This document shows positions 10,773 through 47,850 of a stretch of DNA of 57,120 nt, piece by piece. The stretch lies in contig NC_057719.1 of NCBI RefSeq assembly GCF_004010195.1, forward strand, positions 25,742,663 to 25,799,782. Direction: 5' to 3'. The number at the start of each line of letters is the position of its first letter. Position 1 is the first letter of the stretch. Under the pieces are notes generated by a model. It was not told the DNA's origin and did not search any database. It was given only the letters and a program-made list of their open reading frames with translations. A program made the translations under genes and the position numbers. Origin of the DNA: Chiloscyllium plagiosum (lineage: Eukaryota).

Positions 10773-10942
10773 TGATTTGGAGATGCTGGTGTTGGACTGG
10801 GGTGTACAAAGTAAAAAAAAATCACACAACACCAGGTTATAGTCCAACAGGTTTAATTGGAAGCACTAGCTTTCGGAGCGCCAATTAGTGCTCCCAATTA
10901 AACCTGTTGGACTATAACCTAGTGTTATGTGATTTTTAACTT
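10773..10942. mobile_element. Palindromic family C PLE-terminus insertion
   Basis: Inverted arms and a partial hammerhead gcgctccgaaagcta on the minus strand. TSD tgtttctggaa at 10762 and 10943. Confidence 0.78.
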
Positions 10943-12239
10943 TGTTTCTGGAAGAACTTTCTTTACTGACTCTTGAGCAACTTGTGAACTAGTTGGTGCC
11001 TTAAAAACCAATGGAGATTGTAAATTTTAAACTGCGATATCGTTCAACAGGAGGCCACAAACTGCCAATTTACTAGCCAGGCTCAGCACATTTGGATAAT
11101 CTCTACAATAATGTATTACAAAAGATATTTTGTGAATGAAGGGAGGAGGATGCCCTCTCTCTCAATACATAAAGATTGTGATAATTATAGGAGTACATGA
11201 TGGAGACTGTAAATGGCGTAGGAAGTGTATCAGGAACCAAATAATTTACAAGAAGTACGCCCAGGTGTTCTAGACCCTTACGAGAAAGCAGCAACTCTAT
11301 TCGGATTAGAAAGTAATAGTTAAAAAAACTGTGGTTCAAATGCTAAAAACATTTGAAACAAGCATTGCGCTTCAGTGAGATCAGCATGGTTATGCAAATT
11401 ATCTCATACACTATCTCAAAGAATAAAAAAAAAGAAGTTTATAAAAAAGGCCCCTGGGGCTCAGCTCACTGCGTATCAGTCACCACTATTCTTACACTCA
11501 AAGACAAAATTAATCCTAGGATAAAGCTGGTGGCCTTCCACCCTGGGGATGCACTGATTCTATCTGAACAAACTGCTGTCAATGGTGTCTCAAGTCAAAG
11601 CCTGGAAGACAGATAGAAACTGAAGGATTGTTCTGAACCTTTTGTGTATTCAATGCTTTAGTGTCTTCCAAGTTTTCTGTGGCTTGTATGATATATCACA
11701 CGACTGTCTACAGACATAGAGATTCTATTCGACCATATTGAGCATCTAATGAGAGTGCAGTGCCACTTGGTGATACTTGTTTAGTTATACTACAATCAGA
11801 TAGCAAATAGAAAATGCTAACCCTGTATCTGAAAGTGAAAAGCCATGTTTCAAATTAGCTACCACAAAATACGGACTTCTGAAAAAGTAAATGGCAATTC
11901 AGAATGAATCACAGGGTGAGGCACCAAACCTCCAGTTGAGAAAGCATAGGTATGTGTCTCCTGAACTGCACAAGGGTAGAGGCGACAGTAGGGTCAAAAT
12001 GGAAAGTGCTGTAGTACCCAACATACTGCTGTGTCTCAAATAAATGATGTTTTGGAGCCACAGTTTGCATCTGTTACCTGTCATTGTGCAAAGACCCATC
12101 TCATATGGAGAATGGCTACAAGCAAATGTCAGGCTTCAACTACAAGAGCCCAGAATTGCCTCTGGTGACGAAACTCATTCAAATAAGTAGGAATAGCAAG
12201 TAAATGTCCTCCAAGTAAGCCATATCTGGAATACTGTAA

Positions 12240-12790
12240 ATATTGATGAAGTCAGAGTGGTACAAATTGTGTATGTGGACTTTAGCAAAGCCTTTGACAA
12301 GATTTCACGTGGTAGATGCATTAATAAAGTTAGATCACTTGGGAATCACTGTGAACTGCCAATTGGATACAAAATTGGCTCAATGATAGGAGATAGAGGG
12401 TGGTGGTGGAGGGATGTGTTTCGGACTAGAACGGTGTTCATTAGGATTGGTAACGGGTCCAGTTTTGTTTGTCATGTATATAAATGACTTAGATGAGAAC
12501 ATAGTAGGCATGGTTAGTAGGTTTGCAGATGATACCAATGTTGACGGTATAGTGGACAGTGAAGAAGTTATGGGAGAAAGTGAGGACTGCAGATGCTGGA
12601 GATCAGAGCTGAAAAATGTGTTGCTGGAAAAAGCGCAGCAGGTCAGGCAGCATCCAAGGAGCAGGAGAATCGATGTTTCGGGCATAAGCCCTTTGGGTCA
12701 TGATCCCTTGGGTCAATGGGCTGAGGAGTGGCAGATGGAGTTTAATTTGGATAAAAGTAAGGTATTAAATTTTGGTAAAACAAACAAGAG
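12240..12790 (+). mobile_element. CR1 RT fragment, probably continued at about 18840-19590
   Basis: YVDFSKAFDKI, YINDLD, FADDT and WQMEFN motifs. Confidence 0.8.
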
Positions 12791-15700: not shown

Positions 15701-16050
15701 ACTCTCCCCCAAGATACTGGTACCCCTCTGGTTCAGGTGTAGACCATCTCATTTGTAGAGGTATCACCTATCCCAGAATGAGCCCAATTATCCAGGCATC
15801 TGAATCCCTCCCTCCTGTAGCAGCACTGTAACCACATGTTTAACTGCTCTCTCTATCGCTATTCCTTGCCTCACTAACACGTGGCATGAGTAATAAACTA
15901 GAGATAACAATTCTGTTTGTTCTAGCTCTAAGCTTCCACCCTAGCTTCTTGAATTTCTGTCTGACATTCCCATCCCTTTTCCTACCTATGTTGTTGGTGC
16001 CTATGTGGACCACAACTTGGAGCTGCTCCCGCTCCTCCTCAAGGATCCGT
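12790..16050 (-). mobile_element. CR1/HER1-type LINE, 5'-truncated and frameshifted (end of ORF1 esterase, ORF2 endonuclease and RT)
   Basis: VVVHIGTN (SGNH ORF1), PTRGEAILDLVL, GDSDHN, QHGFLKGKSCLTNL, YMDFSKAFDKVPH and GVPQGS motifs. 3' tail near 12790. Confidence 0.9.
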
Positions 16051-16703
16051 AAACATGATCTGTTCTATGTTCTATATTCAAGCAGGAGGTTGGAAGAACA
16101 CAGCAAGCCAGGCAGCATCAGGAGGTGGAGAAGTCAATGTTTCAGGTGTAACCCTTCTTCAGGACTGGAGTGGGTGCAGAGGGAGCTGCAGATAAAGGGG
16201 GTGGGGGAGGGATTTGGGTGAGGAGAGGGGCAGGGTGCTGAGGTAGTGATAGGTGAACACAGGTAGAAAGTACGAACTGGTTGGACTATGGGAGGAATGA
16301 ATCCAGTTGGTACCTGGAAGGAAGGGTCAATGAGAAGAATGGAATGGAGAGGGTGGGGCTGGGAAGGAAGGTTATTTGAAATTGGAGAACTCAATGTTGA
16401 GTCTCAACGCTGTAGGCTGCCCAGGTGGAAGACGAAGTGTTGTTCCTCCAATTTGTGGTTTGATTTATTGTGGTAATGGAGGAGGCAAATGATGGTTACG
16501 TTGGAGAGGGAGTGGGAAAGGAAATTAAAATGGGCAGTGACAGGGATGTCAGGTCACTCCCTGCGGGCACAGCGGGGTAGAGAAGACCACATTGGGAGCA
16601 CCGGATATAATAAACTAAGTTGAAGGACCGCATCGATTTTCCTGCTCCTCAGGTGCTGTCTGACCTGCTATGCTTTTCCAGCACAACTCTAATCTAGACT
16701 CTA

Positions 16704-17460
16704 ACAAAGAGGATTGATGAAAGCAGAGCGGTAGATGTGATCTATACAGATTTCAGTAAGGCGTTTGACAAGGTTCCCCATGGGAGACTAATTAGCAAGG
16801 TTAGATCTCATGGAATACAGGGAGAACTAGCCATTTGGATTCAGAACTGGCTCAAAGGTAGAAGACACGGTGGTGGTGGAGGGTAGTTTTTCAGATTGGA
16901 GGCCTGTGACCAGTGGAGTGCCACAAGGATCGGTGCTGGGTCCTCTACATTTTGTCATTTACATAAATGATTTGGATGCGAGCATAAGAGGTACAGTTAG
17001 TAAGTTTGCAGATTATACCAAAATTGGAGGTGTAGTGGACAGCGAAGAGGGTTACCTCAGATTACAACAGAATCTTGATCAGATNNNNNNNNNNNNNNNN
17101 NNNNNNNNNNNNNNNNNNNNNNNNNNNNNNNNNNNAAGGATGTTGCCAGGGTTGGAGGATTTGAGCTATGGGAAGAGGCTGAACAGGCTGGGGCTATTTT
17201 CCCTGGAGCGGAGGCTGAGGGGTGACCTTATAGAGGTTTACAAAATTATGAGGGGCATGGATAGGGTAAATAGCCAAAGTCTTTTCCCTGGGGTGGGGGG
17301 GTTCAGAACTAGAGGGCATAGGTTTAGGGTGAGAAGGGAAAGATATCAAAGAGACCTAAGGGGCAACTTTTTCATGCAGAGGGTGGTACGTGTATGGAAT
17401 GAGCTGCCAGAGGAAGTGTTGGAGGCTGGTACAATTGCAACATACTGTACATCTCTATGA
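16704..17460 (+). mobile_element. CR1 RT and 3' fragment (spans the N-gap 17085-17135)
   Basis: VTSGVPQGSVLGP, YINDLD and RRLRGDLIEVYKIM motifs. Confidence 0.88.
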
Positions 17461-17836
17461 ATCTATCTGCAGTCCTCACTTATGCCTAAGTTGAAGGAGT
17501 CGCAAGTGATTCTCTGTCTCACCTGGAAGGACTGTTTTGAGCCCTGGGTGGAGGTGAAGGGGGTGGTGTACTGGCAAGTTTTACCCTTTCTGTCATCCAG
17601 ACAGCTCTCCACCACATCTCCTCCATTCCCTGCTCCACTGCTCTAAATGCCCCCCACCTCTAAACAAAATAAAGACAGAGTCCCACTTGCCCTCACCAAC
17701 CACCCCACCAGTCTCCGCATCCAACGTATTATCCTTAAATATTTCTGCCAACTCCAACTAGACCTGACCACCAAGAACATCTTCTCCTTCCCACCCCTCT
17801 CTGCCTTCCCACCCCTCTTTGCCAATCCTTGGTTCA

Positions 17837-18062
17837 GGATTAGAATGGTGCTGAAAAACACAGCAGGTCAGGCACCATCCGAGGAGCAGGAAAATTGACG
17901 TATCGGCAAAAGCCCTTCATCAGGATCAGCTCTTCCTAATGAAGGACCTTTGCCCGTAACATCGATTTTTCTGCTCCTCGGATGCTACATGGCATGATGT
18001 GCCTTTCCAGCACCACTCTAATCTTGACTCTAATCTCCAGCATCTGCAGTACCCACTTTAAC
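17837..18062. mobile_element. Palindromic family A insertion inside the Neptune-type element
   Basis: TSD ccaatc(c/t)ttggttca at 17822 and 18063. Confidence 0.78.
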
Positions 18063-19143
18063 CCAATCTTTGGTTCACGCCACTCTCCCCACTGACTCCC
18101 CTGAATCCCACGAACCTACCCCGCAACTGGAAAAGATGCAAAACCTGCCGATACACCACCTCCCTCACCTCCATCCAGGGCCCCAAACAGAGATTCGCCT
18201 GCCTCTCCTCCAATCTAGTTTACTGTATCTGGTACTCCCAATGTGATCTTCCCTACACAGGGGAGACCAAACATAAATTAAGGAAACAGTTTGGCGAGAA
18301 TCTCAGTCAGGCCCACAGGGGCTGACCTGACCTCCCAGTCACTGTCCATTTTAACTTCCCTTCTCACTCCCTCTCCGACATGACCACCCTCGGCCTTCTC
18401 CATTGCCACAGTGAATCACACCACAATTTAAAGGAGCAAGGCCTCACCTTCCGCCTGGGCAGCTGACAGCCCAAAGGACTCAACATTGAGTTCTCCAATT
18501 TCAAATAACCTCCCTTCCCATCTCCGACTCCCTTTCCAGCCCCAGCCCCTTCCCCTCCCTTCCATTACTTTGATAGACCCTTCCTTCCAGCTACTAACCA
18601 GATTCATTCCTCCCATTGACCAACTAGGTCATACCTTCTATCTGTGTTCACCTATCACTAACTCAGCAACCTCCCCTTCCCCACCCAAAACCCTCTCCCA
18701 ACTGCCCCCCATTATCTGCAGTTCCCCTTACACCAACTCCCACTCCTGAAGAAGGGTTACACCCAAAATGTTGACTTCTCCACCTCCTGATGCTGCCTGG
18801 TTTGCTGTATTCTTCCAGCCTCCTGTTTCTGAACCTTGGGTTAAGGCATTTAACATGCTTGCCTTCATTGCTCAGATCTGTGAGTATAGAGTTGGAATGT
18901 CATGTTGAGGTTGGTGATGCCTCTTCTGGAGTACTGTGTGCAGTTCTGGTCGCCCTCCTGTAGGAAGGGGGTATTATTATATTGGAGAGGGTTCAGAAAA
19001 GATTGCTGAGAATGGAGGGCTTGAATTATAAAAATAGGCTGGGACTTTTTTCACTGGAGCATAGAAGTTAGGAGTGACCTTATAGAGGTTTGTAATATCA
19101 AGAGGGGCATAGATAAGGTGAGTAGGTCTTGTGAGTAGGTTTC

Positions 19144-19171
19144 CTGATGAAGGGCTTTTGCCCGAAATGTC
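19144..19171 (+). ncRNA. Hammerhead motif, family A, within insertion 19133-19269
   Basis: ctgatga-a-gggc(tttt)gccc-gaaa-tgtc with CpG decay in stem III. TSD tgagtaggtcttgt at 19119 and 19270. Confidence 0.7.
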
Positions 19172-20149
19172 GATTTTGCTGCTCGTCGGATGCTGCCTGA
19201 ATTGCTGTGCTCTTCCAGCACCACTGATCCAGAATCTGGTTTCCAGCATCTGCAGTCATTGTTTTTACCTGAGTAGGTCTTGTCCCTAGCATGGGAGAAT
19301 GCAAAATTAGGGGACCTATTTTCAAAGTGAGAGGAGAAAGCTTTAAAAGAACGTGAGGGGCAACTTTTTTATACAGAGAATGGTTTGTGTGTGGAACGAA
19401 ATGCCAGAGGAAGTAACGGGAGAAGGCACAGTAACAACATTTAAAAGATATTTGGATAAACATGAATAGGAAAGGTTTGGAAGAATATGGGCCAAATGCA
19501 GCAAGTCAGATCAGTTTAGTTTGGGAACATGATCGATGTGGACTAGTTGGACTGAAGGATCTGTTTCTGTGCTGTATGGCTCTATGTAAATAATCGTATT
19601 AAGAATACAGGTACAGCAGGCAGTGAAGAAAGCTAATGGCATGCTAGCCTTCATAGCAAGACGAATTAAGTATAGGAGCAAAGAAGTCCTTCTGCAGCTG
19701 TACAGGGCCCTGGTGAGACTGCACCTGGAATTTTGTGTGCAGTTTTGGTTTCCAACTTTGAGGAAGGACATTCTGGCTATTGAGGGAGGGCAGCGTAGGT
19801 TCACGAGGTCAATTCCCAGAATGGCGGGACTATCATATGTTGAAAGATTGGAGTGACTGGGCTTGTCTTTACTTGAGTTTAGAAGGATGAGAGGGGATCT
19901 GATTGAATTGTATAAGATTATTAAAGGACTGGACCCTCTGGACGCAGGAAGTATGTTTCCACTGATGGATGAGTCCAGAGCCAGAGGACACAGTTTAAAA
20001 ATAAAGGGTAGGCCATTTAGAACAGAGTTGAGGGGAAATTTCTTCACCTAGAGAGTGGTGGATATATGAAATGCTCTGCCCCAGAAGGCAGTCGAGACCA
20101 CATCTCTGGATACTTTCAAGAAATAGATGGATAGATCTCTTAAAGATAA

Positions 20150-21846: not shown

Positions 21847-21896
21847 CCTGGCCTGTCTCCAGTTTCCACTTCTTGTCCAGATGTTCTCTCCATCAT
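21847..21896 (-). CDS. RIN3: Probable RIN3 first coding exon
   Basis: ATGATG start, MMERTSGQEVETGDRP(G), 50 nt ending in phase 2 at donor gtatgt (21841-21846). Phase is compatible with exon 2, giving a 270-nt intron, and a promoter-like region lies upstream. Confidence 0.72.
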
Positions 21897-23454: not shown

Positions 23455-24390
23455 GAACATAGAAAAAGGACCCTTAACCCATTGTGTTCTTGCTGGCCAA
23501 AAACAAGCTCCTAGGTATTCAAATCCCATTTTCCAGCACTTAGCCAATATCCTTGTATGCCTTGGCATCATAAGTGCACATCCAAATACTACCAGCATCT
23601 TATGAGGGTTTCTGCCTCTATCACCCTTACAGCAGTGAGGCAGATTCCCACAGTCCTGGAGAGAAAAAAAAGTTTTTCTTCATATCTCCTCTAAACCTTC
23701 TACCCTTTAATTCAAACCCCTGCTCCCTGGCCATTCATCTCTCCAACAAGGAATCATAACTTAATACATCTCCATCATGTCCCCTCTCAATCTCCTTTGC
23801 TGTAAGGAAAATAATCCCAGTCTATAAAATCTCTCTTCAGAACTGAATCTCTCCGGCCCAAGCAACATCCTAGTAAATCTGCTCTGCACCCTCTCTAGTA
23901 CTGTCACATCTCCTATAATGTGAAGTCCAGAGCTGCATCTAATACAATTTACCTGTGGTGTAAATAACATTTATACAAGTCCAGAATAAGCTCGCTACTC
24001 TATGTCTCAACTAATAAAGGAAAGTATATGATGTGCCTTCTTAACCACTTTATCCGCCTGTCTGGATACCTTAAGGGACTGGTGTACATGCACAACAAGG
24101 TTCCTCTGATCTTCGGTGCTTCCCAAACTGTACTGTTTATCATGTATTCCGTTAGGAGAAAGTGAGGACTGCAGATGCTGGAGATCAGAGCTGAAAAATG
24201 TGTTGCTGGAAAAGTGCAGCAGGAAGGGCTTATGCCCGAAACATCGATTCTCCTGCTCCTTGGATGCTGCCTGACCTGCTGCGCTTTTCCAGCAACATAT
24301 GTTTCAGCTCATGCATTCCGTTGCCATGTTTGTTTTGCCCAAATGCATCATCTCACGCTTTTTCGTTTGCCACTGATCAGCCCATCTGAC
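23455..24390 (-). mobile_element. Old CR1 3' fragment
   Basis: LERVQSRFTRML...RRLRGDMMEMY. Confidence 0.75.
24154..24308. mobile_element. Palindromic family A insertion
   Basis: TSD tcatg(t/c)attccgtt at 24140 and 24309. Confidence 0.78.
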
Positions 24391-24998: not shown

Positions 24999-25121
24999 GA
25001 GAGAGTGCAGACTGCAGATGTTGGAGATCAGAATCAAAGAATGTGTTGCTGGAAAAGCACAGCAGGTCAGGCAGCGTCTGAGGAGCAGGAGAATCGATGT
25101 TTCGTGCATGAGCCCTCCCTA
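24999..25121 (-). mobile_element. Single-arm family A insertion
   Basis: TSD ctcattggtctgtgg at 24984 and 25122. Confidence 0.75.
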
Positions 25122-25789
25122 CTCATTGGTCTGTGGCAGGAAAACAGCCCATTAGTTTTCCAGCGTGGATTAGTAACTTGCCCTGCAGGTGGTTTGGAAG
25201 CGGGGAGGAGGGGGTCATTTCTTTAGTTTGTGGGATGTGGGCATCACTGTCAAGGCTGGCATTTGCTGCCATCTCTACTGCTCCCTATTGCTGGGGAGAA
25301 CAGCCAGTAGTAGCTTAGGTATTTTCTAATCAGCCTGTTCAGAGATGTTAATACACACTTCAGGAGCAGGTGGGACCTGAACGCAGGCCTTCTGTACTAC
25401 AAGAGCACTCTCTCAGAGTTAAGAGTGTGGTGCTGGAAAAGCACAGAGGTTAGGCAGCATCCGAGGAGCAGGAGAGTCATATCACAAATGGGCACTAGCT
25501 ACGAGTGGTTGAAAGCCATATGGATGGCTGATTTCACCAGGGAACAAAACCAGGTCGAAACAGTCAGAGGACTGAGCTGAAGACTTTTTTTAGAATAATG
25601 TATGCGAAGTGAACCACCAAACTGTGACAACATTGCCACAGAGCTGAGAGGATAGAGCAGACTTCCTGTAGGTGTGCTGCTTTGATGCCAAGTGTGACGT
25701 CCTCAGCCATCTATCTATCTTCTGTGGAATATGTAGCAAGATCTGCAATGCAAGATCCCGAATCAGCAGCTTTGACTGAAGGTCAAATA

Positions 25790-27250
25790 GAATCAAAACA
25801 TTATAGAGTTTTTACAGAATGGAAAGAGTCTATTTGCCCATCATGTCATCAAGTATCCATCTATTTTAATGGCATTTTCCAGCACGTGGCTTGTCGTCTT
25901 GTATGCTATGGCATTTTAAATGCTCATCTGAGTAGTCTTTAAATTTCTTGAGGGTCCTTGCCTCTACCACCCTTTAAAAAAGTGAGTTCCAGGTATCCAC
26001 AATCTCTGAAGCAATTTATTTTTTTCAAATTCCCTTTGAATCTCCTGCTCCTTCCCTTAAACCCATATGCACTGGCTATTGGCCCCTCTACTAAGAGTAA
26101 ATAAAGGTTTCTCCCTATCTGCCCTGTTTATGCTACTCAAAACTCTGCACACATCAGTCAGACAGTCAGATCTCCCATCAGTATTCTTGGCTTGAAGGAA
26201 AATGACCCCAATCCATCTAGTTTTAACCACTTATCTACCTGTCCTGCTGCCTTGAAGGGATCTATGGACATGCATTCCAAGATCCCTCAATCTTCTGCAT
26301 TTCCTACATCCTGTCATTCAACTTGTACTTCCCTACCTTGTTCGTCCTCCAAAATGCAAGATTTCTGATGAAGGGCTCATGCCCAAAAACTTGATTCTCC
26401 TGCTCCTTGGATGCTGCCTGACTTGCTGTGCTTTTCCAATTCCACACTCTCGACTCTGAGCTCCAGCATCTGCAGTCCTCATTTTCGCTTCCCAAAATGC
26501 ATCACTCATACTCATCAGAATTAAATTCCATTTGACATTCTACAGGCCATCTGCTCAACCCATCTACATCATTCTGCAGTCTAAGGCTTACCTCCTCACT
26601 ATTTACCACATCACCAATTTTTGTGTCATCTGTAAATTTATTGATCATACCTCCTACATTCATGTCTTGATCATTAATGTACACAAGAAACTGCAAGGGA
26701 TCTAGCACCAAACCCTGTCGTACACCACAAGACACAAGCCATCCAGATAGAAAAACATCCTTCAACATTCCCTCTAATAAGGAAATTTTGGATCCAATTT
26801 GCCAAATTGCCCTGGATCTCAAGGGCTGTTAGATTCTGAAACAGTCTGCTATGCAAACCTTGTCAAAACTCTTAATGACAGCTAAATAGACCATAATCAA
26901 CTGGCAGAAAGAAAAAGAGATCATCTGCAGTCCCCTCGTTCTCCTCTGTATAGAATATCTCAGGTACATGGCCCTCATCTACACACCTAGTGATCTACTC
27001 AAGGAATTCATCAAATTTGTTTGACATGATCTCCCTCTCAAAAAGCCATGTTGACTATCCTTGATTAATCCTCTTAGAATGTTTCCCTACCACAGATATC
27101 AGACTCATTACCCTAATTTCCTGGTTAATCTCTGCCACCCTTCTTGAAATGGCACCACATTGGTTGTCCTTCAGTTCTCTGGCAACCCTCGTGCGGTCAG
27201 AGAGGATTGAAAAGCTAATATCAGAGCCCCTGCAATTTCTGTTCCAGACG
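25790..27250 (-). mobile_element. Old CR1 RT and 3' fragment
   Basis: GVRQGLVLDP, YIND, FTDDTKIG and QMEFN motifs. Confidence 0.75.
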
Positions 27251-28472: not shown

Positions 28473-29229
28473 CAATACTTATTAGTAAGAATCTCACTAC
28501 ACTGCCTGTGAAAAGCATGAATAATGACATGAGATGATCTTGACATTTAGATGGGCATCATCCGAATTCTTGTCTGATTTAAAAGACATCTGGAAGGGTT
28601 CAGTGAGGGAAATGCTGGCAAATGGACTAGATTAGGTTATGACATCTGGTCGGCATGGACAAGTTGGACTGAAGGGTTTGTTTCCATGCTGTACATCTCT
28701 ATGACTCTAAATAAGAACACGCAAACGATACAAAAAAGCTGATAAATCTCAATCAATGCTGCAATGAATATATTTTTAAGTTGTCTACACAAGTGATATA
28801 AATACTTATGTGTCTCTGGATGTTCACTGTACAATCACTGTTTCCATGGTATCATTTCAGGTGAATTAATTGAGGGGGGTATAAAACCTTAAGATTGGAT
28901 GAGTTGGTGGCAGATGTGAAGATAAAAATCTATGACCCACGTTAATCTAATGTCTATACTGTTGTCAGGAGGCAGGCGAGTGAGGTGTTGCTCCTACAGT
29001 TCACATTGAGCCTCACTTATTTCCTGTTGCAGCATGAGGCCGAAATGTTGGCAGGGCAGCACAATGGTGTTCATTGGCAGGCAATTTGAAGCTTGGGTTC
29101 TGAGCTTTCTGTCCAGACTTCTGAGGTGGGAGCCTTCATAACGAATGAAGGCCATCCAGCAAACCAAACAGGCAACAGTGGAATGAATCATTGCAGAAAC
29201 CACACCTCCATGGATAGCCATGACTGGAG

Positions 29230-30115
29230 GTGTTGGTCTGGGGTGGACAAAGTCAGAAGTCACATGACACCAGGTTATAGCCCAACAGTTTGAAATCGCA
29301 AGCTTTTGGAGTGCTGCTCCTTCATCGGTTGAAATGGAGGGAAACGCATAGATTTTACAGGCGGTGGGATCATTGCAAGTATACCAAGTATTTAAGAGTG
29401 TTAAAAGATATTACAGATGGTGTGAGTGCGGTGTAGACAGACTGAATAATAAGTCTTTGGTCAAAAGTCTCAGATGGTTTGAGTAAAGTGTCAACTGCTG
29501 AATAGCAAGTGAAGGGATGACCTATGATCCAATTAGTTAAAACAGAGAGATAATTACAAATAATCAAAAATAAGATAGTGCTGGGAACAAACCAAATGGC
29601 TGGAATAACTTGGTAGGTACAAGAGTCGCACAATGTGGGTCTAACCAAAGTAACAAGTAATCCAAAACTGTAAAAATTAATTAAGATAGAGAGATCATAA
29701 CAAGTTATCAAGATGATTGTGTCAAAACAGAACAGTAAGGAAGATTTTACAGATACAGAAGAATATGGTGGGGTTACATGTAGTGCGACATGAATCCAAG
29801 ATTGCGGTTCAGGCCATCTTCATGAGTTTTCACTTGGCCATGAGTTTCTGCTCGGCGATTCTGCATTGTTGTGTTTCTCAAAGGGCACTTTGCAGGATAT
29901 TTACTGGAAGATTGGAGGCAGAATGCTCTTGACTGCTGAAGTGTTCCCCAACTGGGAGGGAACATTTCTGTCTGGCGATCTCTCTGCCTATAAATCCTGT
30001 GCCTGTGTGCTTCCCTCCACTTCACCTGATGAAGAAGCAGTGCTCCAAAAGTTTGTGGTTTCAAATATACCTGTTGGATTATAGCCTGATGTTGTGCGAC
30101 TTCTGATTTTGTCCC
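29230..30115. mobile_element. Penelope-like element 3' fragment, family C, with a short inverted arm
   Basis: Minus-strand endonuclease C-terminus (KTHEDGLNRNLGFMSHY). The terminal sequence is inverted at about 29980-30115 and is the same family as 10773-10942. Confidence 0.75.
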
Positions 30116-30429
30116 CTTTACAGCAGTAGCTGCAGTATTCCTTGCTTAATGGTTTCAAAGCTACCTTGAGAGTGAAATCAGGGAAATGTTTACGTGAGAG
30201 TAGGGTGTTATGTAGGTGAGGGTTAGGATGCCAGGTGGCTGGGGATGGGGAGGGGTAAGATACCAAGTGGATTGGAGTTTCATTTGGCAGATAATTGAGT
30301 GACTGGCCACAGTGGGTCATGTGTTTAATGTTGTGCATTTGTGTACCCAGGACAGGTGGAGGTGGTGAGATTTTGGCGTTGTCTGTAGGGATATTAGTCA
30401 AGTGTCTGTATATAGGAGGTGTGAAGGTT

Positions 30430-32685: not shown

Positions 32686-33120
32686 TAATTCTGGATTAGT
32701 GGTGCTGGAAGAGCACAGCAGTTCAGGCAGCATCCGAGGAGCAGTAAAATCGACGTTTTGCCCGAAACGTCGATTTTACTGTTCCTTGGATGCTGCCTGA
32801 ACTGCTGTACGTTTCCAGCACCACTCTAATCTAGACTCTGGTTTCCAGCATCTGCAGTCATTGTTTTTACCTAATTGATATTAACCCTACTGTGAATCGT
32901 CTTGCAAGGATGCCTGCCTTGAAGAAGTTTTCCTCCTCTCTCTACAAGAATCTCAGGGAGTCCCTCTCCCACTGCAACTCCCAGCTTTATTCCTGATGAA
33001 GGGCTTTTGCCCGAAATGTCAATTTTACTGCTCCTCGGATGCTGCCTGAACTGCTGTGCTCTTCCAGCACCACGAATCCAGAATCTGGTTTCCAGCATCT
33101 GCAGTCATTGTTTTTACCAC
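32686..33120. mobile_element. Composite family A insertion (inverted arm plus two tandem termini) inside a CR1 3' fragment (about 32560-33375, minus)
   Basis: Hammerhead core at 32993-33020 and a partial core at 32757-32771, flanked by the duplicated sequence atcactctaa. Confidence 0.78.
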
Positions 33121-34847
33121 ATCACTCTAAACCCTTCCTATTCATGTAACCATCCAGATGCCTTTTAAATGTTGTAATTGTACCAGCCTCCACCACTTCC
33201 TCTGGCAGCTCATTCCATACACATACCATACTCTGCCTGAAATGTTGTCTCTTACAACCCTTTTGAGTCTTTCCCCTCTCATCCTAAACCTATACCCTCT
33301 AGTTCTGGACTCCCCCACACCAGGGGGAAAAAAACCTTGTCTATTTACCCTAACTATGCCCCTCATGATTTTGGTATAACTGGAGAACCCTGATCTTTAA
33401 GGGAGATTGGATTCAGCGAGCAGGTCAGCCAGAGTGGAGAGAATCAGCCACAGCCAGACGCCGTCAGGAAAAGAAAGAGAAAAAAAAATCTTCTCATCCA
33501 CAAACCTCTGCATACTGATGAGAAGTGGTAGGAGAGCCAAGTTACCGACCGGGGCAGCGCCAGCAACATCCACCACTGTCCAGGCTGACAGATCCCACTT
33601 CAGGGCTGAGGATATGGTCATCGAGACCCTCTGTCCCAGCTCAGTTAGGTAGAGTAGGAAGGGTGGGCCTCAGGCCCAACAGTGCTGGACAACCCCAGGG
33701 AAGGGAAGCAGGATAGAACCCCGGGATTAATGTTCTTTCTCTCTCACTCTCCCCTTTCCTCTGTCACCCAGTAATTAACAGCTCTCTGTAATTTTAAACC
33801 CACAGTACCAAGTCAGGCCTGCAAGGGTTAACTGGGGTGCTAGCTGTCAGATAAGACTCACTTTGCTTGTTCCATAACTTTGGTACTTTTGAAATATTCA
33901 TTTTCTTTTTCGGTTATTGTACCTATTAAAACTTTGCGTGTTTTGATAAAATCAGAAGTTCCTTTGCCGCTGAAGCATCTGTCCCCTGTGTTTTCACCAT
34001 ACTACATCTCACTGCATAGGCCCAGCGTCAGAACCAAGGAGCTGGCATACAATAAGCCAACCAACTCTCCCTACACAGTTTGTACTCAAAGCTCTTCACG
34101 CACCCAACATATCTTGACTGGGTAATCATCATAACTTGGGTACGATTGGTTGATTTGCTGCATCTCAATCAGGTTGAACTATATCTTTCAAAATGGCTTT
34201 CATGATGTTGTTATCCCATTTACGGTACACATTTATTAAGATGCTTGATGCTTGTCCAATCATTAAGTATGTACATGTTGTATTTTATCGTTGCTATTCT
34301 TTCATCCCTTTTAAGTCTTAACTACTGAAATCATTGTAGAAGAACCAGAAGTGAGATATGGACAATTTTGTTTTTTTTACAGTGAATGGTTAGAATCTGG
34401 AATTAATTATTTGACTGACTAATGGAAGTTAATTCAATTTAACTTTTCAAGGATAGATGGTTAAAAACTTCCAGAGGGAATGAAATCACAAGGCTATGGG
34501 AAAATGACAATGGGACTAATTAGACAGCTCTTTCAAAGAGTTGGCATAGACTGGATGGGTCAAATGGCCTACTTAACAACATAAGAAGCAAGATTAGCAG
34601 AAGACGATATGGACCTGGAACTGATTTTGCCATTCCACAGAATCATGACTGAATAGTCAACAATCGAGATTCCATAGCTCTCTGTAGAACAGAATTCCAA
34701 AGCTTCACCACCCACTGGGTGAAGAAATTGCTCTGTATTGCAGTCCTCAATGACCTATCTCTTATGCTGAAGTTATGATCCACAATTCCAACTTCTCCAA
34801 CCAGGGAAAAGGCATCTCAACATTTACCCTGACAAGCTCTCTCAGAA

Positions 34848-34952
34848 ACTGAGAGATTCCTGATGAAGGGATTATGTCCGAAATATTGACTATCCTACTC
34901 CTCGGATGCTGCAAGACCTGCTGTGCTTTTCCAGCACCACACCTTTCAACTT
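34848..34952 (+). mobile_element. Single-arm family A insertion
   Basis: Decayed hammerhead ctgatgaagggattatgtccgaaa. TSD aagctctctcagaa at 34834 and 34953. Confidence 0.75.
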
Positions 34953-36442: not shown

Positions 36443-36634
36443 TATAAACAGGCAGGAGGCTGGAAGAACACAGCAAGCCAGGCAGCATCAGGAGGTGGAG
36501 AAGTCAACATTCAGGTGTAACCCTTCTTTAGGATCCGAAACGTTGACTTCTCCAACTCCTGATGCTGCCTGGCTTGCTGCGTTCTTCCAGCCTCCCGCCT
36601 GTCTATTTTGGATTCTAGTATCTTCTGTCTCTAA
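36443..36634. mobile_element. Palindromic family B PLE-terminus insertion
   Basis: Inverted arms meet in the hammerhead region. 17-bp TSD ccaagagtggaaaagaa at 36426 and 36635. Confidence 0.82.
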
Positions 36635-36707: not shown

Positions 36708-36939
36708 GCAGAAGTAGGTACTGCAGATGCTGGAGATTAGAGTCAAGATCAGAGTGGTGCTGGAAAAGCACAGCAGGTCAGGCAGCATCCGAGGAGCAGG
36801 GAAATTGGCATTTCGGGCAAAAGCCCTTCATCAGGAATGCCCTGATTTCCTGATGAAGGGCTTTTGCCCGAAACATCGATTTTCTTGCTCCTCAGATGCT
36901 GCCTGACCTGCTGTGCTTTTCCAACATAATTCTAATCTT
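36708..36939. mobile_element. Palindromic family A PLE-terminus insertion with two hammerhead cores (36807-36834 minus, 36850-36877 plus)
   Basis: Inverted arms. TSD aactctagatgttg at 36694 and 36940. Confidence 0.82.
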
Positions 36940-39900: not shown

Positions 39901-41689
39901 CAAAGCAGGAGAACAGTGGTTTCATCATTGATATCCACGATAAATACATATGTGAGATTTACAAAATAATCTACTAATTTCATTTTACTTTAGTTGATTT
40001 TTAATGAAAAATTTAGATTAATTCGTGTTATATTCAGTATTTTTAACAAACACCAGAGTTTTGTAGGCTTTACATGGATGACAATGAAATCTAAATAAGA
40101 CAATACATAATGTACAGTAAATGAAAAAAAATTAAAGATGTTTGAAATTCAAAACAATAACAAAATGTTCTGGAGACACTCAGCAGGCCATAGAGCATCT
40201 CTCAAGAGAACACAAGTGATATGACCCTTTCTCATTACATAACATCGTGAGCAAAATTGGCTTTGGAAACTCCAGCAACAGTGCAGAATACATGAATTCT
40301 TTAAAAAAACCTAATAAAATATCCAGTGTCCTTATATAACAAGCTTTTAATAAACTCTCCTTTTACTGAACTTACTCAAAATATCAAACAACAAATAGAG
40401 TAAGAGCACATGCCAGAAAAATACTATTTCTCTTTCCACACCTGATCCCATTTCAACAATATAGTCATCAGCTCTTTTATCATAGGACCTTAAATATAAT
40501 CCTTTTTAATTATAAAACTTCACATTTTGAAAATCCCATAATATAACCTTGAATCTTCATTTATGGAGGGAAGACCTCCATTTATTTCATCTTCATTACA
40601 TTGAAATGTTATCTCCACACTGCTCACTCGAGCCATCACTGATTTCGACAGTGATGCCCACAGTGGTGTGAGCTTGAAAAATCAATTCAGGTAGCTTAAA
40701 TACTACAATGCAAAACTAATTAAGACAATCTGTTATATTTATGTAAAAAGGTGCCACTCACAGTTTACATAATCACACTCACTCAACCAACTAATCTTAG
40801 CTGTGCTATTGATTTCCTGAATTTTCTTTGTGCGTTTTCCTTTTGTTGTTAAAACCCAGTTAGCTGACTACAGTATCTGAGGGAAGCAGATCTGCTTCCT
40901 CCACCTGGTATGCTTGGTATACTGGCTCCAGTTCTATGTGGTTCATTCTTCATTTGTCAAGAACATCAAGGGTTGGGCAATAAATACTGATTTACCAGGG
41001 CCACCCATATCCCAAAAAACAAATAATTAGAAATAAACTTTGCTGATTTTAGAATGATGTTTTCAATGAATTTCCTAAATGTTTGTGGAATCTATTGCAC
41101 AATGATTATAGGGTAAGGGTGTATCCATGTTGGATTAATCATATAGTGAATGTACATAGAATGTACTTGATCAACCAATTTCACATTGCAGACTTTTAAT
41201 TTGGTTGCAGGGTTCATGTTAGAGCGATACCACAACTAAAAAAAAGTGTTATTTTGGTCTGGGTTTATTCACGTTAGGGAGGGTAATTGGTTTCTATACA
41301 AATGGTTTACTTTCTCTTGTTGGGACAGAGCACATCCTGTAGGTTAAGATATAGTGTCACCTGCTGTGTCTACCTGACTGTAACTGATTGTGTGGGCCCA
41401 CATTCTCTTCTTGTGGAATTATTTGGATGTTGAAGGGCAGATTGAAGAATGAGCTCACAAGAATAAATCCCGAGAGCATTTTGGGCATTATTTAAACTCA
41501 AATTGATTATATTCCCCTCCCCAGTCAGTTGTGTGGTCCCAACAAATAGCCATTTTTACCAATCTCGACTGTAATGTGCATGCGAGCCATTGGATGATCC
41601 TTCCTTCAATTTTTTCTTGCTCATTATAGGGAACTAGGAAGCATGCACTACCTCACTATAATATCACTGTTGTGATCAGGTATTTGTCA

Positions 41690-42335: not shown

Positions 42336-42539
42336 ATCACAAGACCGCAAACCATATCTTACAATCCCATGTCAGCATGCTGCCTTGTAGTTACCCATTT
42401 CAATGTACATTATGTCAATAAATCACAAGATTGTTCCCTATCTCAACAATTCATTATCAGGCATTGATCTCAAGCTGTAACATGGAAACATCCAGCTCAT
42501 CAACCCACTGATGACTGATGTCAGCATTTTTACAAAGCA

Positions 42540-43930
42540 GCACAAAATGTTGAAATGGAAACAGAAAATGCTGGAAATACACAGCAGCATCTGTTAGCAT
42601 TTGAGAAAAAGGAAGAAGAGTTAATGTTCCAGGTCAAAACCTTTTTTTCGTTAGAAAAGCACGGTGTATGGAATGAGCTGTCAGAGGAAGTGGTGGAGGC
42701 TGGTACAATTACAGCATTTGAAAGGCATGTGGATGGGTATATGAATAGGAAGGGTTGAGAGGGATATGGGCTAAATGCTGGCAAACGGGACTAGATTAAT
42801 TTAGGATATCTGGTCGGCATGGACCGAAGGATTTGTTTCCGTGCTATATGTCTCTATGACTCTAAATTAAAACATTAGAACTGTCATAGGTCAATTAGCA
42901 AGTAAAAGGAGAGATGGTGAGAAAAAGACCATAAGGGAAAAGTCTATGACAGGGTGAAGAGATAAAAGGGTTCAGGTGCAAGGTCACAGTGAGTGGCAAT
43001 AGGACCAGTGCAAGAGCAAAAGGTGTGTTTGAATGTGTGTTAATGGCAGGATGTTGAATAGTGGCAAAAAAGGAAAGAAAAAGAACATGAAAGAGAAACA
43101 GAATCAGAAAGGAAAAAAGGAAACAAAATTATATATATGGTACAATATGAAACCGTTGAACTCTTCAAGTCCTGTAGTCAGTAAAGGGTGCAGATGAAAA
43201 ATGAAATGATTTTCCTTATACCAGCTAATTGGAGCTAGTAAAGGACAGAAAAGTAACAGGAGGGGAATCAAAATGCTAGGTTAGCAGGGTGATAGGTATT
43301 TGACTGAGCAAAAAAGCAAAATGGCTACCCAGTAGGCATTTCTTTTCCCCAGTGTAGAGGAAATTTCATTGAGAGCAGACAATACCATATACTAAATTGA
43401 AAAAAAATGTATAAATCATTGCTTCACCTGGAAGGAGCATTTGGGTCCACGAGGATGTGAGGGAGAGCAGGTATTCCATTTCCTGTGCCCTGCAAAGGAG
43501 AGGAGGTGTGGAGAGGTGATTGAGAGTCAGAGTATCACAAAGGCCACAGCCCTGTCAGAATGCTGAAAGTGGAGGAAGGGAAAGATGTGTTTTGTGGAGG
43601 CATTACAATGTGAACGTGGCAGAAATGTCCATTGAATATAAAAATTTGTGGCGTAGAAGGTAAGGTCAGGGGGAGCACTATCGTGGGTCTGAGATGGAGG
43701 ATGAAAGTGTGAGAACAGAAATAGATGAAATGGAACAAATGCAGTTGAGGACCCTGTTGACTATGATCATGCAGTATCTTCAGTTAAAGAAAGAGAAAAA
43801 CACATTAGAAATGATAATATGTAGGTTATAGTATCCGAACAGATGGAGAAATGGGGGAAATTGAATATGTAGTCTTTACAGAAAGCAGGCTGCAAGGAAG
43901 TGTCATCAAAGTAATTGTGGGAGTTGATGT
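42540..43930 (-). mobile_element. Old Neptune-type PLE fragment, family D, interrupted by a CR1 tail (about 42660-42865)
   Basis: Terminus cagaaaatgctggaaatacacagcag. Decayed similarity to the 16080-17592 arm (tatactaaattgaa, tcacctggaagga). Related termini occur near 40150-40230 and 45185-45280. Confidence 0.55.
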
Positions 43931-44227
43931 GCTCTTAAGGTGTGAAGTATATGAGATATTGGATTCCCGCTCTGCCAGTTAAAGGTTGGAGGTTGTGGGG
44001 AAATGATGAGTGGAACACCAGTTGCCTCACAGCCATTTAATGGTCAAGTGACCATTAGCAATAAGTTAGAGGTGGGATTGATAACTGTCAGAAATAGGAA
44101 GGCCCAGCTCAGAGAGTTGTCAGCCAATCACCAGCCTGATTAGGATTTGAATCATTGTTTGGGTAGGGGATTTGATGCTTGCCAGTTTGGCAGGACAAGT
44201 GAAAGGGGCAGGGGTATGGGGTTTTAG

Positions 44228-44478
44228 AGGCAAGCCATTCCTCCCATCAAGTCCACAGCAACCCTCTGAACAGCATTGCACCCAGATCCACTCCCTCTCC
44301 TAAGCCTATAATCAGCATTTCCCATGACCAATTCACCTAACCTGCACATCTTTGGACTGTGGGAGGAAACCAGAGCACCCGGACATGGGGAGGATGTGCA
44401 AACTCCATATAGACCGTCGCCTGTGGTTGGGATGAAACCTGGATCCCTGGTGCTATGAGGCAGCAGTGCTAACCACTG
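44228..44478 (-). mobile_element. V-SINE copy
   Basis: Reverse-complement V core and head. Confidence 0.75.
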
Positions 44479-46612
44479 GTGATGGTGGATGAGGGGGTGT
44501 GGTTCTGGGGGAAGACATCCTAGAAGGGAAGGAAGGAACTTCTGATTGGTTCAGGGGGCCTAGTAAGAATGGTTCCGCATCTCATTGACCCTTCACACCA
44601 ATAGACTGAGCAAGGTTATCTGCTGGGCTGGGGACATATGATGGACGTTTCTGCCACCAGTTCAATTCTGAGGGCAGAAAGATAAGGCTGATAAGTGGAC
44701 GTCAATTGCCCACTCCGGGGTCTTATTTGCCTTACTGGCAGGCAGTTGCCCCAGTGCTCCCCACTTATATATTTGCACTGTGGCAGGTATGAGTGGGCAG
44801 ACAGTAGTCAGGCCACTTGCTGGGCTTAATTACCTCCCACTGCCATCAAATCACTACAGTGTCCAGCCCAGTGAATGTTCATCAATGGCCATTCCCAGAC
44901 ATGCAGACCAGAAGCATATATTACAGAAGAGAGGAATTGGTGATGGATTATGAGAAGGTGGGCAAAGGATGGAAATCGTATGCAAAGTCAGTTCAATTAT
45001 TCAGTTGAGGGCAAAGAAATATCACTGATACAGTGATATTTGGAAATAGTTTTGAAAAACGCCAGGCTGGAACAAAGGATGATCTGCATGTTTCAAAGGT
45101 GAGTTAGCCAGGACCTTGTGTGCATCCATAGCAACAGCTTTTATTCGCAGGACTTTAGTGGGCCAATTTAAAACTATTTCCAATTGCAAAGAAAGGTCAC
45201 AGACCCGAAATGTTAACTCTGTTTCACTCTCCATTGATGCTGCTTGATCTGCTGACCCTTTTTCTAGCATTTTCTGATAATGCCTCAGATTTCCACATTC
45301 ATAACATTTCACAGGAAGTGGAAAACTGAACATCAGTTTCCCTGGGGAATTTTCTTTGCTGAAGGCACCAACGCGTGCTGGGATCAGTACATGGCTGTGA
45401 GAAGTTCTCCAGACTTGGATCATAGTCTGGTCTGACTTCAGGCAGTAAGACTGTGGAGCTCACTATGAGAAGATGTCAGAGCTGGGGTGGAAACAAGGAC
45501 ACCCTTCACAGTAAGGATTGCTGCACAGTAATTGACAGAGGGCAATCCTGAATAATTTATTTACTCCTTCAGAGTTGACAAATAAAACAGTAATTTGGCT
45601 GCCTCATTCGAGATCAACAAAGGACCTAGGAATCAATTATCTGGGTCCATACCAGAGTTTGCAATCCACTTACCTATTAATCATTGGGAACATTACAATT
45701 ATTATGGTAATCCCAATTATTCTAACATTGTTATTGCAGCATTTTTTTAACTTGCTTAAAATAGCAGGTTGATAACAATTAAGTCTATCATCTGAAGATG
45801 TCCTTTCAGACTGAGAACCTTTGTGACCGTACAAAGTGAAATGCTCATTTATAACACCAGAACTGTGCAGTTTTCTCTGCATCATGCTGTGTGCAGTCTT
45901 TGTTCATTCCTGGGCTTGTAACAAAACCCAGAAGGTGAAACTACAGTTTAACAATCCATGGAGCTCTCAAACAGGAAGAAATCATAAAGACCGAATCAGT
46001 AAAACTACAAATTGAAATGTTTTAATTGGCGTCTCAATGTGCAAACATTCAGTTTTTGCGCATAGCATTTTTATTGCCATGGTACCATTAAAATGGTGTC
46101 GAAGATGTGAAAGCTAAGTTGCATTCACAATAAAACAGGATTGGATTATGTGCGAAACACACCCACCATTCCCCCTCCCCCCCTCCACTAACCAGAATCC
46201 CTTTAAAAGAAGAATGTGTGTGCATTTGCAGATAGTAGACAATAAGCTCAATTCAAACTGGTCACAGTAGGACAAAATATGACACTTTGGCCTCTATCTT
46301 CACCACGACAGAGACTCCCTTGTGTTGAAAATGTGGATGCACTCAAACATTTCAGGTCCTGCCCTCCAAACATGACACATCCCTTTTTCAAGGAGAGCGG
46401 GAGAAGGTCACGTTTGCACTCACACATGCATGGAGGCAACTGGCCACGTCAATCATCAGTTGCCTCCACTTCTGTGTGACTTTACAGATTAGGCCTGATT
46501 TGAGCAATTCTATGAGGAGAAAGTGAGGTCTGCAGATGCTGGAGATCAGAGCTGGAAATGTGTTGCTGGAAAAGCGCAGCAGGTCAGGCAGCGTCCAGGG
46601 AACAGGAGAATC

Positions 46613-46640
46613 GACGTTTCGGGCATAAGCCCTTCTTCAG
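46613..46640 (-). ncRNA. Minimal hammerhead ribozyme motif, intact core, antisense arm
   Basis: Exact reverse complement of 46668-46695. Confidence 0.8.
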
Positions 46641-46667
46641 GAATGGGGAAAGTTGCTTTCCCCATTC

Positions 46668-46695
46668 CTGAAGAAGGGCTTATGCCCGAAACGTC
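46668..46695 (+). ncRNA. Minimal type I hammerhead ribozyme motif, intact core
   Basis: CTGAAGA-a-GGGC(ttat)GCCC-GAAA-C-GTC, with palindromic stem III ACGT and cleavage triplet GUC. Confidence 0.8.
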
Positions 46696-47038
46696 GATTC
46701 TCCTGTTCCCTGGATGCTGCCTGACCTGCTGCGCTTTTCCAGCAACACATTTTGAGCAACTCTATGCATCACAGGAACATGAGCAGGTTGTTCAGCCCTT
46801 TGAGCCTGCCCAGCCATTCAGTATGATCAACATTTCCTTCATTCACCCCATCCCCATAATCCTATACACCGCTGGTAATCAGAAATCTATCAATTTCTAT
46901 CTTAAACATACTCAAAAACAGATACTCCATAGTCCTCTGCTGTAGAGAATTCTAAAGGTTTACAGCCTTCTATTTAAGAAAAAAATCTCATCATAGACCT
47001 GAGTGACACATCCTATCTCAGGTATACTTTTGAAAGGG

Positions 47039-47850
47039 TCGAAAAGTGTAGCGCTGGAAAAGCACAGCAGGTCAGGCAGCATTCGAAGAGCAAGGCAGTC
47101 GACTGATGAAGGGCTTATGCCTGAAATGTCGACTCTCCTGCTCCTTGGATGCTGCCTAACCTGCTGTGCTTTTCGACTATGATCTCCAGCATCTGCAGTC
47201 CTCACTTACTACTAATTATTTTGAAAAGGCATCTACCCTTTCGGAAATGTCCTAGAAAGGGTAGATGTCCTTTTTTGGAGGTAAGGTGACCGCTAGAGGA
47301 AGTTAAGTGACATTTGGAGAAGGTAAGGTGCCATTTCGAATTGTTAAATGTAGGCATGAATTTCCATAAAAGGTGCATAATCTAATTAGAACTGTTCAAA
47401 TCAATTGTAAAGATGTGTTAAAAGTGGCAAGAGTACCTATCAAAAAGATCTCTCAAAATGTCAAGAGGAGAAGACCTGTCAAAATCAACTTTCAAAGGAA
47501 GTTTTCAAGCTGTCAAAGCAATTAGACTTTGAAAAATGATCTGGAGTCTTTAAAGAACATTACTTGTTATTTAAGTCTCAAAGAGTGCGGTGCTGGTAAA
47601 GCACAGCTGGTCAGGTAGCATCGGAGGAGCAGGAAAGTTAACATATCGAGCATAAGCCCTTCATCAAGAATGGGGTGTTGCCCAAGGGGGCTGAGAGATA
47701 AATGGGAGGGGGTGGGGCTGGGGGAAAGGTAGCTGGAAATGCTTTAGGTACATGAAGGTGGGCGTGAAGGTGAAAGGTCAGAGAGGAGGGTAGAGCAGAT
47801 AGGTGGGAAGGAAGATGGACAGGTAAGACAGTCTGTTGACAAATACCCAT
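47039..47850. mobile_element. Two further family A insertions (about 47039-47218 and 47579-47850)
   Basis: Shared gctggaaaagcacagcaggtcaggcagcat terminus and hammerhead remnants. Other copies lie at about 12572-12692, 16628-16702, 25415-25478, 26360-26490 and 55735-55872. Confidence 0.7.

Follow-up and report, generated by a model that had tools for sequence, protein, structure and literature searches.

Why should short palindromic insertions turn around at a ribozyme? The question is raised by a 57,120-nt stretch of the genome of the shark Chiloscyllium plagiosum (contig NC_057719.1, positions 25,742,663–25,799,782; 'the window' below is this whole stretch), into which ends of Penelope-like elements (PLEs) carrying a hammerhead ribozyme motif have been inserted many times, as single arms or as two arms in head-to-head orientation. 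The inner ends of these arms reveal a real, position-fixed stop at the hammerhead. The fold-backs themselves are ordinary, known products of PLE insertion, and what they offer is a refinement of the PLE mechanism rather than a new element. As to the cause, we lean with slightly better than even confidence towards 5′-truncated insertions of PLE ends, whose inner ends would pile up at the hammerhead because the RNA would begin a few bases before the ribozyme core, so that reverse transcriptase (RT) runs out of template there.

The hammerhead motif and its setting

The window is non-coding, rich in repeats and 36–47% GC. It contains pieces of CR1-type long interspersed nuclear elements (LINEs) alongside the PLE remnants, and carpet sharks (Stegostoma, Chiloscyllium and Hemiscyllium) are the source of the best named protein relatives of the longest PLE frame. 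The family names A to D and subfamily names A1 to A3 are labels of this analysis. Positions within the elements are counted from the C of CUGANGA as +1, without a zero, which places the predicted cleavage of family A between +28 and +29; the 5′ ends of arms were judged by eye on anchored alignments, with an accuracy of about 2 nt. The pseudo-long terminal repeat (pLTR) of family A is homologous to that of family C (68–69% over about 130 nt). The first ATG of the family A open reading frame (ORF) lies at about +47, and one family A unit enters the start of this ORF at 32873–32984.

A pattern scan identifies the motif as a minimal type I hammerhead. It found the core boxes, stem II, a palindromic stem III and a short stem I that characterise minimal PLE hammerheads; of its 15 hits, 12 belong to the families and have a stem II of at least four pairs. 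Rfam reported no hammerhead in the window and gave just six matches to microRNA hairpins, all below gathering scores, which we attribute to the palindromes. Minimal type I hammerheads are known from metazoan PLEs, where dimers have been predicted (PMC4209133). The copies described here share with them the CUGANGA and GAAA cores, a bulged base before stem II, the palindromic minimal stem III and the short stem I; unlike them, many copies have decayed cores.

Short fold-backs, single arms and long fold-backs

The initial annotation of the window had described eight short palindromic insertions from three families whose arms meet inside the hammerhead core or within about 15 nt of it, and all eight are found where it placed them. 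Each consists of one short arm and one arm that runs on to the tail and is about 35 nt longer. They are as follows, with the strand and 5′ end of each arm and the target-site duplication (TSD):

10773–10942, family B: tail arm 10773–10881 (minus, +15), 4-nt spacer, short arm 10886–10942 (plus, +28); 11-nt TSD.
17837–18062, A3: short arm 17837–17925 (minus, -2), 7-nt spacer, tail arm 17933–18062 (plus, -3, up to -10); 15-nt TSD with one mismatch, the target being a long family C element.
24154–24308, A1: tail arm 24154–24223 (minus, +58), 1–2-nt overlap, short arm 24223–24308 (plus, +6); 14-nt TSD with one mismatch.
32689–33118, A2 composite: short inverted arm 32689–32758 (minus, +22), 3-nt overlap, unit 1 from 32756 (plus, +13) to 32984 in the first ORF codons, 7-nt microhomology, unit 2 at 32978–33118 with tail; 14-nt TSD with one mismatch.
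36443–36634, family C: short arm 36443–36533 (minus, -2), 1-nt spacer, tail arm 36535–36634 (plus, +18); exact 17-nt TSD.
36708–36939, A3: tail arm 36708–36839 (minus, -5), 7-nt spacer, short arm 36847–36939 (plus, -3, up to -9); exact 14-nt TSD.
46515–46750, A1: tail arm to 46654 (minus, -14), 3-nt loop, short arm from 46656 (plus, -12), with an intact hammerhead core in both arms (46640, minus; 46668, plus); 16-nt TSD with one mismatch.
47039–47218, A1: short arm 47039–47103 (minus, +26), 1-nt overlap, tail arm 47103–47218 (plus, +1) with a small internal deletion; marginal 11-nt TSD.

Fifteen of the 16 arms end within -15 to +32, the exception being the +58 arm at 24225. Direct repeats of 11–17 nt flank all eight palindromes; the TSD score is at least 11 at seven of them and 8 at that near 47100, compared with a best score of 10 among 291 random position pairs. 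In the seven simple palindromes, the two motifs never lie on one strand. The composite at 32689–33118 resembles a miniature full-length element, with a pLTR, about 110 nt past the tail into the ORF and a jump via the 7-nt microhomology into a downstream pLTR; its two pLTRs are different subfamily variants.

Ten single arms, all of family A, accompany the fold-backs:

12573–12693, minus: tail-bearing, 5′ end +7; a TSD was looked for and none found.
16628–17485, plus: 5′ end +25 to +29, interrupted by a CR1-type LINE piece (about 16705–17464), with the tail resuming at about 17465; exact 13-nt TSD.
19133–19269, plus: A2, tail-bearing, 5′ end -3, with 8 nt of the target copied again in front of it; exact 14-nt TSD.
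25002–25121, minus: tail-bearing, 5′ end +8; TSD of 14–18 nt.
25413–25478, minus: short, 5′ end +29, i.e. at the predicted cleavage site; no TSD found.
26359–26491, plus: tail-bearing, 5′ end -4; exact 10-nt TSD.
34851–34952, plus: short, 5′ end -4, with a short stretch of the target, inverted, in front of it; TSD of 14–17 nt.
47579–47832, minus: short, with about 165 nt of pyrimidine-rich upstream pLTR, a counter-example to a stop at the motif.
51985–52050, plus: very short, tail-bearing, 5′ end +60, inside a family D element and likewise a counter-example; exact 15-nt TSD.
55750–55868, plus: short, 5′ end about -32; no TSD found.

A seventh candidate TSD among these arms, at 47667, scores just 7. 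Direct or inverted re-copies of the target site stand at the 5′ junctions of three single arms (19133–19140, 34851–34855 and 12693–12710); they resemble templated insertions, as expected of end-joining repair.

Three further fold-backs are of the same kind as the short ones and turn 50–1200 nt upstream of the motif:

16080–18830, family C: turn at about 17590, arms to about -557 and -915; hammerhead cores at 16162 in the left arm and at 18746 in the right, the latter arm also with a GIY-YIG-type region in decay.
29229–30116, family B: turn at about 29975, arms to about -640 and -49.
51254–53705, family D: turn at about 52385–52400 inside the RT coding region, arms to about -990 and -1210, each with remnants of RT followed by GIY-YIG; one-sided tail, exact 12-nt TSD, and hammerhead cores in degenerate form at 51328 (minus) and 53593 (plus).

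Their turning away from the motif means that fold-back formation as such needs no ribozyme. The mapped set comprises 32 PLE arms, namely the 16 short fold-back arms, the ten single arms and the six long fold-back arms. It leaves aside unit 2 at 32978, because its start is a microhomology deletion or switch, and old or tiny profile matches at 45182, 42647, 40200 and 7169. The segments concerned (45182–45295, 42569–42647, 40161–40200 and 7169–7201) look like very old, distant copies of PLE ends and are too decayed for mapping.

A position-fixed stop at the hammerhead

Within the zone from -15 to +32, 22 of the 32 arms end over an exposure of 946 nt, compared with two in the 1164 nt just downstream and three in the 1126 nt just upstream. 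The stop rate per nt is 0.023 in this zone, 0.0017 in +33 to +70, 0.0027 in the 185 nt upstream and 0.0015 beyond (five ends). This corresponds to an enrichment of about 9–14-fold over the flanking rate (nominal p = 2e-6 and 1e-5, for a zone picked after viewing the data and with arms, including paired ones, treated as independent). Counted per insertion, the mean end lies inside the zone in 15 of 21 cases.

The outer ends fall into two classes, with medians at +126 (n = 13) and +90 (n = 12), and on average the 5′ ends of tail arms (n = 13) lie 7 nt from those of short arms (n = 11). A length-limited model predicts a difference of 36 nt (p = 0.0024) and a fixed-position model a difference of 0 (p = 0.42), in a test made without the six long arms, the -165 arm and the arm running into the ORF. 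An offset of 7 rather than 36 nt ties the stop to template position and not to cDNA length. Smooth fits to the arm lengths fail as well (Kolmogorov–Smirnov p = 0.002 for a log-normal and 2e-5 for a shifted exponential distribution).

The initial annotation had set its idea of clustered breakpoints against a smooth truncation-length distribution with no peak at the hammerhead, and these results largely reject the latter. Its clustering holds with all 32 arms, whereas its list was selective: the four single arms named there are correct (19141 at -3, 26361 at -4, 34856 at -4 and 16631–16635 at +25 to +29), but six others (+7, +8, +29, +60, -32 and -165) and the three long fold-backs, brought to light by profile search, self-comparison and translation, were missing.

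Could the pile then be an effect of selection or detection, or of a smooth processivity limit of about 100–130 nt? Short palindromes are bound to turn near the motif, as their outer ends are only 90–126 nt away, and the existence of the long fold-backs means that a list of short ones is biased towards turns near the ribozyme. Moreover, arms shorter than about 35 nt are hard to detect, and three or four very old copies were omitted. Yet the step in stop rate persists with all 32 arms, and very short arms missing from the set would favour the very length model that is rejected. We consider this explanation highly unlikely.

Which end of the motif is favoured

Eight of the 22 zone ends lie at -5 to -2 (scan-corrected p = 0.01), 12 in +1 to +29 and two at -12 and -14. 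The initial annotation had offered ribozyme cleavage as one way of setting the stop, and self-cleavage would indeed create an RNA 5′ end at +29 at which RT could run off. Arms starting at +25 to +29 fit this notion (16631, 25478, 47103 on the minus strand, and 10886), and in R2 elements the 5′ junction is set by ribozyme cleavage (PMC3774820). However, +25 to +30 holds four of the 22 zone ends, which is not above a uniform expectation (p = 0.31), while 18 lie upstream of +25 and require an uncut template, the eight at -5 to -2 among them. There is no +29/+30 class among the loose ends listed for the contigs described below, where an artefact class at +36 could mask some. In addition, insertion by Poseidon of the anole Anolis carolinensis (PAc) is independent of hammerhead cleavage, mutants inserting normally in vitro (PMC11167929). 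Cleavage thus accounts for at most a minority of the ends, and as the main cause of the pile it is very unlikely.

The main rival is a barrier: the ribozyme region, whether folded, dimerised through stem III or bound by protein, would make RT drop off a longer RNA, with joining of the cDNAs as in the explanation we prefer. The zone of high stop rate matches the extent of the motif, the 12 ends in +1 to +29 are spread over it, and a role of bound protein or dimers would agree with the report that the PLE-type hammerhead is protein-assisted (PMC11167929) and with the dimers predicted for metazoan PLEs (PMC4209133). Against a barrier, RT would reach the 3′ edge of the fold (+32) first, yet cDNAs end most often beyond the entire structure, at -5 to -2. 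As a monomer, the ribozyme folds weakly (about -11 kcal/mol, with no significant z for four of five copies), its fold consisting essentially of one 4-bp stem. On balance we judge it unlikely. A more elaborate and improbable alternative has two RNAs in a hammerhead dimer copied by a protein dimer from both cut strands, with both RTs stopping at the dimer interface (+29 on cut and -4 on uncut RNA) and the cDNAs joined there or snapped back on stem I; the stretch of 130 nt between -4 and the tail, with an initiator of its own, would also be a self-transcribing parasite resembling a short interspersed nuclear element. If true, this would give the PLE hammerhead its missing role and account for inverted pLTRs.

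Two sets of DNA contigs and two sets of RNA reads were aligned to positions 32960–33139, and the contigs add evidence for run-off at an RNA 5′ end near -4. In contig set X1, 43,253 contigs aligned, 4,956 of them partly, and the largest class of 5′ loose ends among those listed lies at -4 (438 contigs, flank agreement 0.32); in set X13, from another organism, 391 contigs fall at -4 among the listed classes and 99 long copies leave at -15. These -4 classes lump ends from -4 to about -12 together with some long copies, owing to private substitutions of the reference at -5 and -7, which tells against reading them as a single start. A flank agreement of 0.32–0.33 in the two sets indicates mostly unrelated flanks. 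Further listed classes of X1 hold 185 contigs at +36 and 158 at -3. The +36 class (185, 166 and 87 records) was discarded as an alignment artefact, its consensus being the family's own core, and depth upstream of -4 was not used because the homology of the reference ends at -15. The contig alignments support a putative pile at the 5′ edge of the motif without proving a single-base peak.

In RNA run X21, 258 of 1,507 reads have loose ends at -5/-4 with a consensus that resembles an inverted arm. The same 1507 reads show no pile of molecule starts, which, in a poly(A) single-cell library ill-suited to this question, is evidence neither way; in run X22, no read aligned to 32960–33139. An initiator-like YYANWYY with its A at -4 is present in three of four family A copies and both family C copies that reach that far, and the same A is also the first base of stem I. 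All told, we consider the chances of an RNA 5′ end near -4 to be about even.

Several further points weigh against such an end. The pile at -5 to -2 loses significance if the ambiguous arms at 17933 and 36847 are shifted upstream (6/22, p = 0.23). Run-off at -4 alone leaves the 12 ends inside +1 to +29 unexplained and does not predict that the downstream edge of the zone coincides with the cleavage site, and three short arms extend past -4 (to -12, -14 and -32). Young long copies are under-represented among contigs, and 531 rows of loose ends lie outside those listed. Matches to the initiator motif are frequent in this pyrimidine-rich DNA (seven to eight within 236 nt of family C), stem I in part dictates it, and in families B and D it does not stand at -4. 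In Drosophila virilis Penelope, finally, 46 nt separate the transcription start from a downstream intron of 75 nt that ends right at helix I (PMC2377424; PMC4209133), lengths that put the start about 120 nt from the ribozyme.

Two other candidates were rejected. A spliced template, suggested by the D. virilis intron and by a YAG at -9 in one family A copy and at -3 in one family C copy, does not agree with junction letters that are not common to the loci, and a G-quadruplex stall in the G-rich cDNA would stop synthesis 30–60 nt further upstream.

Two primers or snap-back

Fold-backs could also arise by self-priming, i.e. by snap-back of one cDNA, or of an antisense RNA, on a hairpin, and a proposal close to this has been made for junction palindromes of PLEs (PMC3846280). 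Three of the junctions are nearly symmetric (17930, 36840 and 46654), the arms at 46654 being 97–98% alike around their 3-nt loop. Moreover, among the opposite-strand joints listed for the contigs, only -2/+36 (five X1 and seven X13 contigs; reference 32991–33028) and -4/+37 (three X13 contigs; reference 32989–33029) recur. Such joints could be stem I snap-backs, if further letters lie between, or an amplified fold-back master.

Yet none of the eight junctions in the window is in register with stem I or II. The outer end of the short arm is fixed at about +90 beside the TSD, which is not required of a snap-back copy, and single arms share their stop sites with the arms of palindromes. Particularly instructive is the inverted arm at 32690, which resembles the distal unit 2 (96%) more closely than the adjacent unit 1 (88%); at three substitutions and a 2-nt indel it agrees with unit 2, and the states of unit 1 there are common to other loci. 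Unless unit 1 is a later arrival, this match to the distal unit implies that the neighbouring cDNA end did not serve as the template of the arm. On the other side of the scale, just one locus is involved, and it could have arisen by secondary insertion into a palindrome already present. We regard snap-back as quite improbable. The suggestion in the initial annotation that the ribozyme fold or its cleavage sets where RT stops or snaps back therefore survives in part: the stop is tied to the position of the hammerhead, but the junction registers, the weak fold and the distal match at 32690 speak against snap-back on the fold.

A proposed model of insertion

In the explanation we prefer, insertion by two primers with run-off at the RNA 5′ end, the endonuclease would make a staggered cut 10–17 nt wide, as the observed TSDs suggest. 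Each freed 3′ end would then prime RT at one of two internal sites, at about +90 and about +126, 35–40 nt apart and within the first ORF codons. Two fixed outer ends are observed there; that they are priming sites is suggested by in vitro work on PAc, whose protein cuts and extends both strands and has two internal RT starts matching the tail (PMC11167929).

Priming in the leader copy of the pLTR would leave 90–130 nt of template, and synthesis would cease on reaching the RNA 5′ end, most plausibly the A at -4, or slightly short of it, while a minority of cDNAs may end at the cleavage site, +29, on cut RNA. One cDNA joined to the other target end would give a single arm. Two cDNAs joined head to head, via overlaps of 1–3 nt or fillers of 1–7 nt, would give a palindrome made anew at each insertion; the anatomy of the junctions is observed, and from it we infer this route of repair. 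Priming in the downstream pLTR would yield long arms with scattered truncation, such as those of the three long fold-backs observed. TSDs vary in length from 10 to 18 nt and are found at all eight palindromes, six of the ten single arms and one of the three long fold-backs. The insertion products are most likely dead on arrival, and the short single-arm units may be transcribed.

Retroelement partners and the MITE alternative

Both arms of the family D fold-back align in order to RT and GIY-YIG proteins (P0007 and P0010), with Pfam GIY-YIG scores under the curated cut-off. Family C has a weak match (E 5e-4) to the same RT and GIY-YIG region of P0008, and its coding piece has no relative at E 1e-8, none in Pfam and none in PDB. 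Family B has no Pfam match; the linkage to RT and GIY-YIG is seen directly for D and weakly for C. Predicted shark host isoforms P0005, P0006 and P0013 (MAP3K7, WBP2-like and CUEDC2) contain family D coding sequence, which suggests exonised PLE pieces or annotation artefacts.

The initial annotation had proposed MITE-looking but RNA-derived elements, and the joining of PLE ends in cis to RT and GIY-YIG remnants bears this out: where it named a DNA transposase as the contrary finding, the coding partner is a retroelement. Terminal inverted repeats and TSDs could nevertheless suggest a family of DNA transposons akin to miniature inverted-repeat transposable elements (MITEs), or one amplified palindromic master. 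MITEs have symmetric terminal inverted repeats, a TSD of fixed length, uniform copies and a transposase partner, and none of these is found here. Instead, TSDs of 11–17 nt, asymmetric ends, eight different centres and the RT and GIY-YIG remnants in cis make this reading almost certainly wrong. Comparing junctions between loci, a check proposed by the initial annotation, showed that all eight differ in the window, even within one subfamily, with spacers of 4, 7, 1, 7 and 3 nt or overlaps of 1–3 nt; its idea of a palindromic mini-element mobilised independently accordingly finds no support.

Comparison with known elements

A canonical insertion of an endonuclease-containing (EN+) PLE has a pLTR, an adjacent inverted and 5′-truncated copy, and a one-sided tail of 30–40 bp (PMC8557442, PMC3846280). 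The insertions in the window share with these the head-to-head inverted copy, the heavy 5′ truncation, a pLTR that overlaps the first ORF codons and the order of RT then GIY-YIG. An inverted truncated pLTR with a one-sided tail is present in all eight short fold-backs and in family D, the variable TSDs are above background at most insertions, and RT and GIY-YIG stand in cis in family D. Unlike described PLEs, the units here mostly measure 60–140 nt per arm, with inner ends piled at the hammerhead. PLE truncation has been described as frequent or variable, with no breakpoint distribution in the accessible parts of these papers (PMC8557442, PMC3846280). The pile is not described in any paper retrieved by literature searches on the PLE hammerhead, truncation and breakpoints, whose scope did not extend to subscription papers, Repbase or the PMC11167929 supplements.

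As in PAc, two internal start sites would define the tail, and the hammerhead lies just upstream of them; unlike family A, with its first ATG at about +47, PAc has an ORF that starts at stem II. The accessible text of PMC11167929 contains no analysis of 5′ junctions or of head-to-head joining. Pairs of hammerheads on opposite strands, 100–700 bp apart, and many solo motifs have already been noted (PMC4209133). A defined RNA 5′ end that leads to a pile of 5′ junctions is reminiscent of R2 (PMC3774820), whose junctions lie at the cleavage site, whereas here most lie about 30 nt upstream. With non-LTR retrozymes (bioRxiv 10.64898/2026.07.22.740005; PMC7229834), the units have in common that they are non-coding, bear hammerheads and derive from PLE pLTRs; retrozymes, however, form head-to-tail tandem arrays that can be cut to monomers and circles, whereas the units here are solo or head-to-head. 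Membership in the retrozymes was rejected, as there are no complete hammerheads arranged head to tail and the first unit of the partial tandem at 32756–33118 lacks the CUGANGA box.

In LINE-1 twin priming, two primers on a staggered cut give an inversion of an upstream, non-repeated segment. Two primers and an inversion are common to both cases, but the arms in the window are two copies of one and the same segment.

The origin of inverted pLTRs and the function of the PLE hammerhead are open questions (PMC8557442, PMC11167929). The position-fixed stop is the useful part of the present findings, as it makes PLE integration testable: twin priming and self-priming differ in which of the two pLTRs, the far or the near one, serves as template of an inverted arm, and with some 30 arms per 57 kb, the genome is a very large natural record of integration junctions.

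Other features of the window

A 26-nt family A pattern had no matches in viral contigs and none in metagenome contigs, and no RNA data set was listed as containing 46300–48300. Three family A insertions (16628–17485, 17837–18062 and 51985–52050) are nested in older PLE fold-backs of families C and D, and several further insertions in CR1-type LINE pieces; this nesting may reflect target preference or mere repeat density. An inverted-repeat pair at 6264–6399 and 7518–7642 (about 130 nt, 79% alike, 1.1 kb apart), without hammerhead or tail, is possibly an old DNA transposon. Directly to the right of the insertion near 47100 lies a near-perfect 51-nt hairpin (47224–47274) that is unrelated to PLE ends, and a diverged short tandem repeat with a period of about 80 nt occupies 55002–55224.

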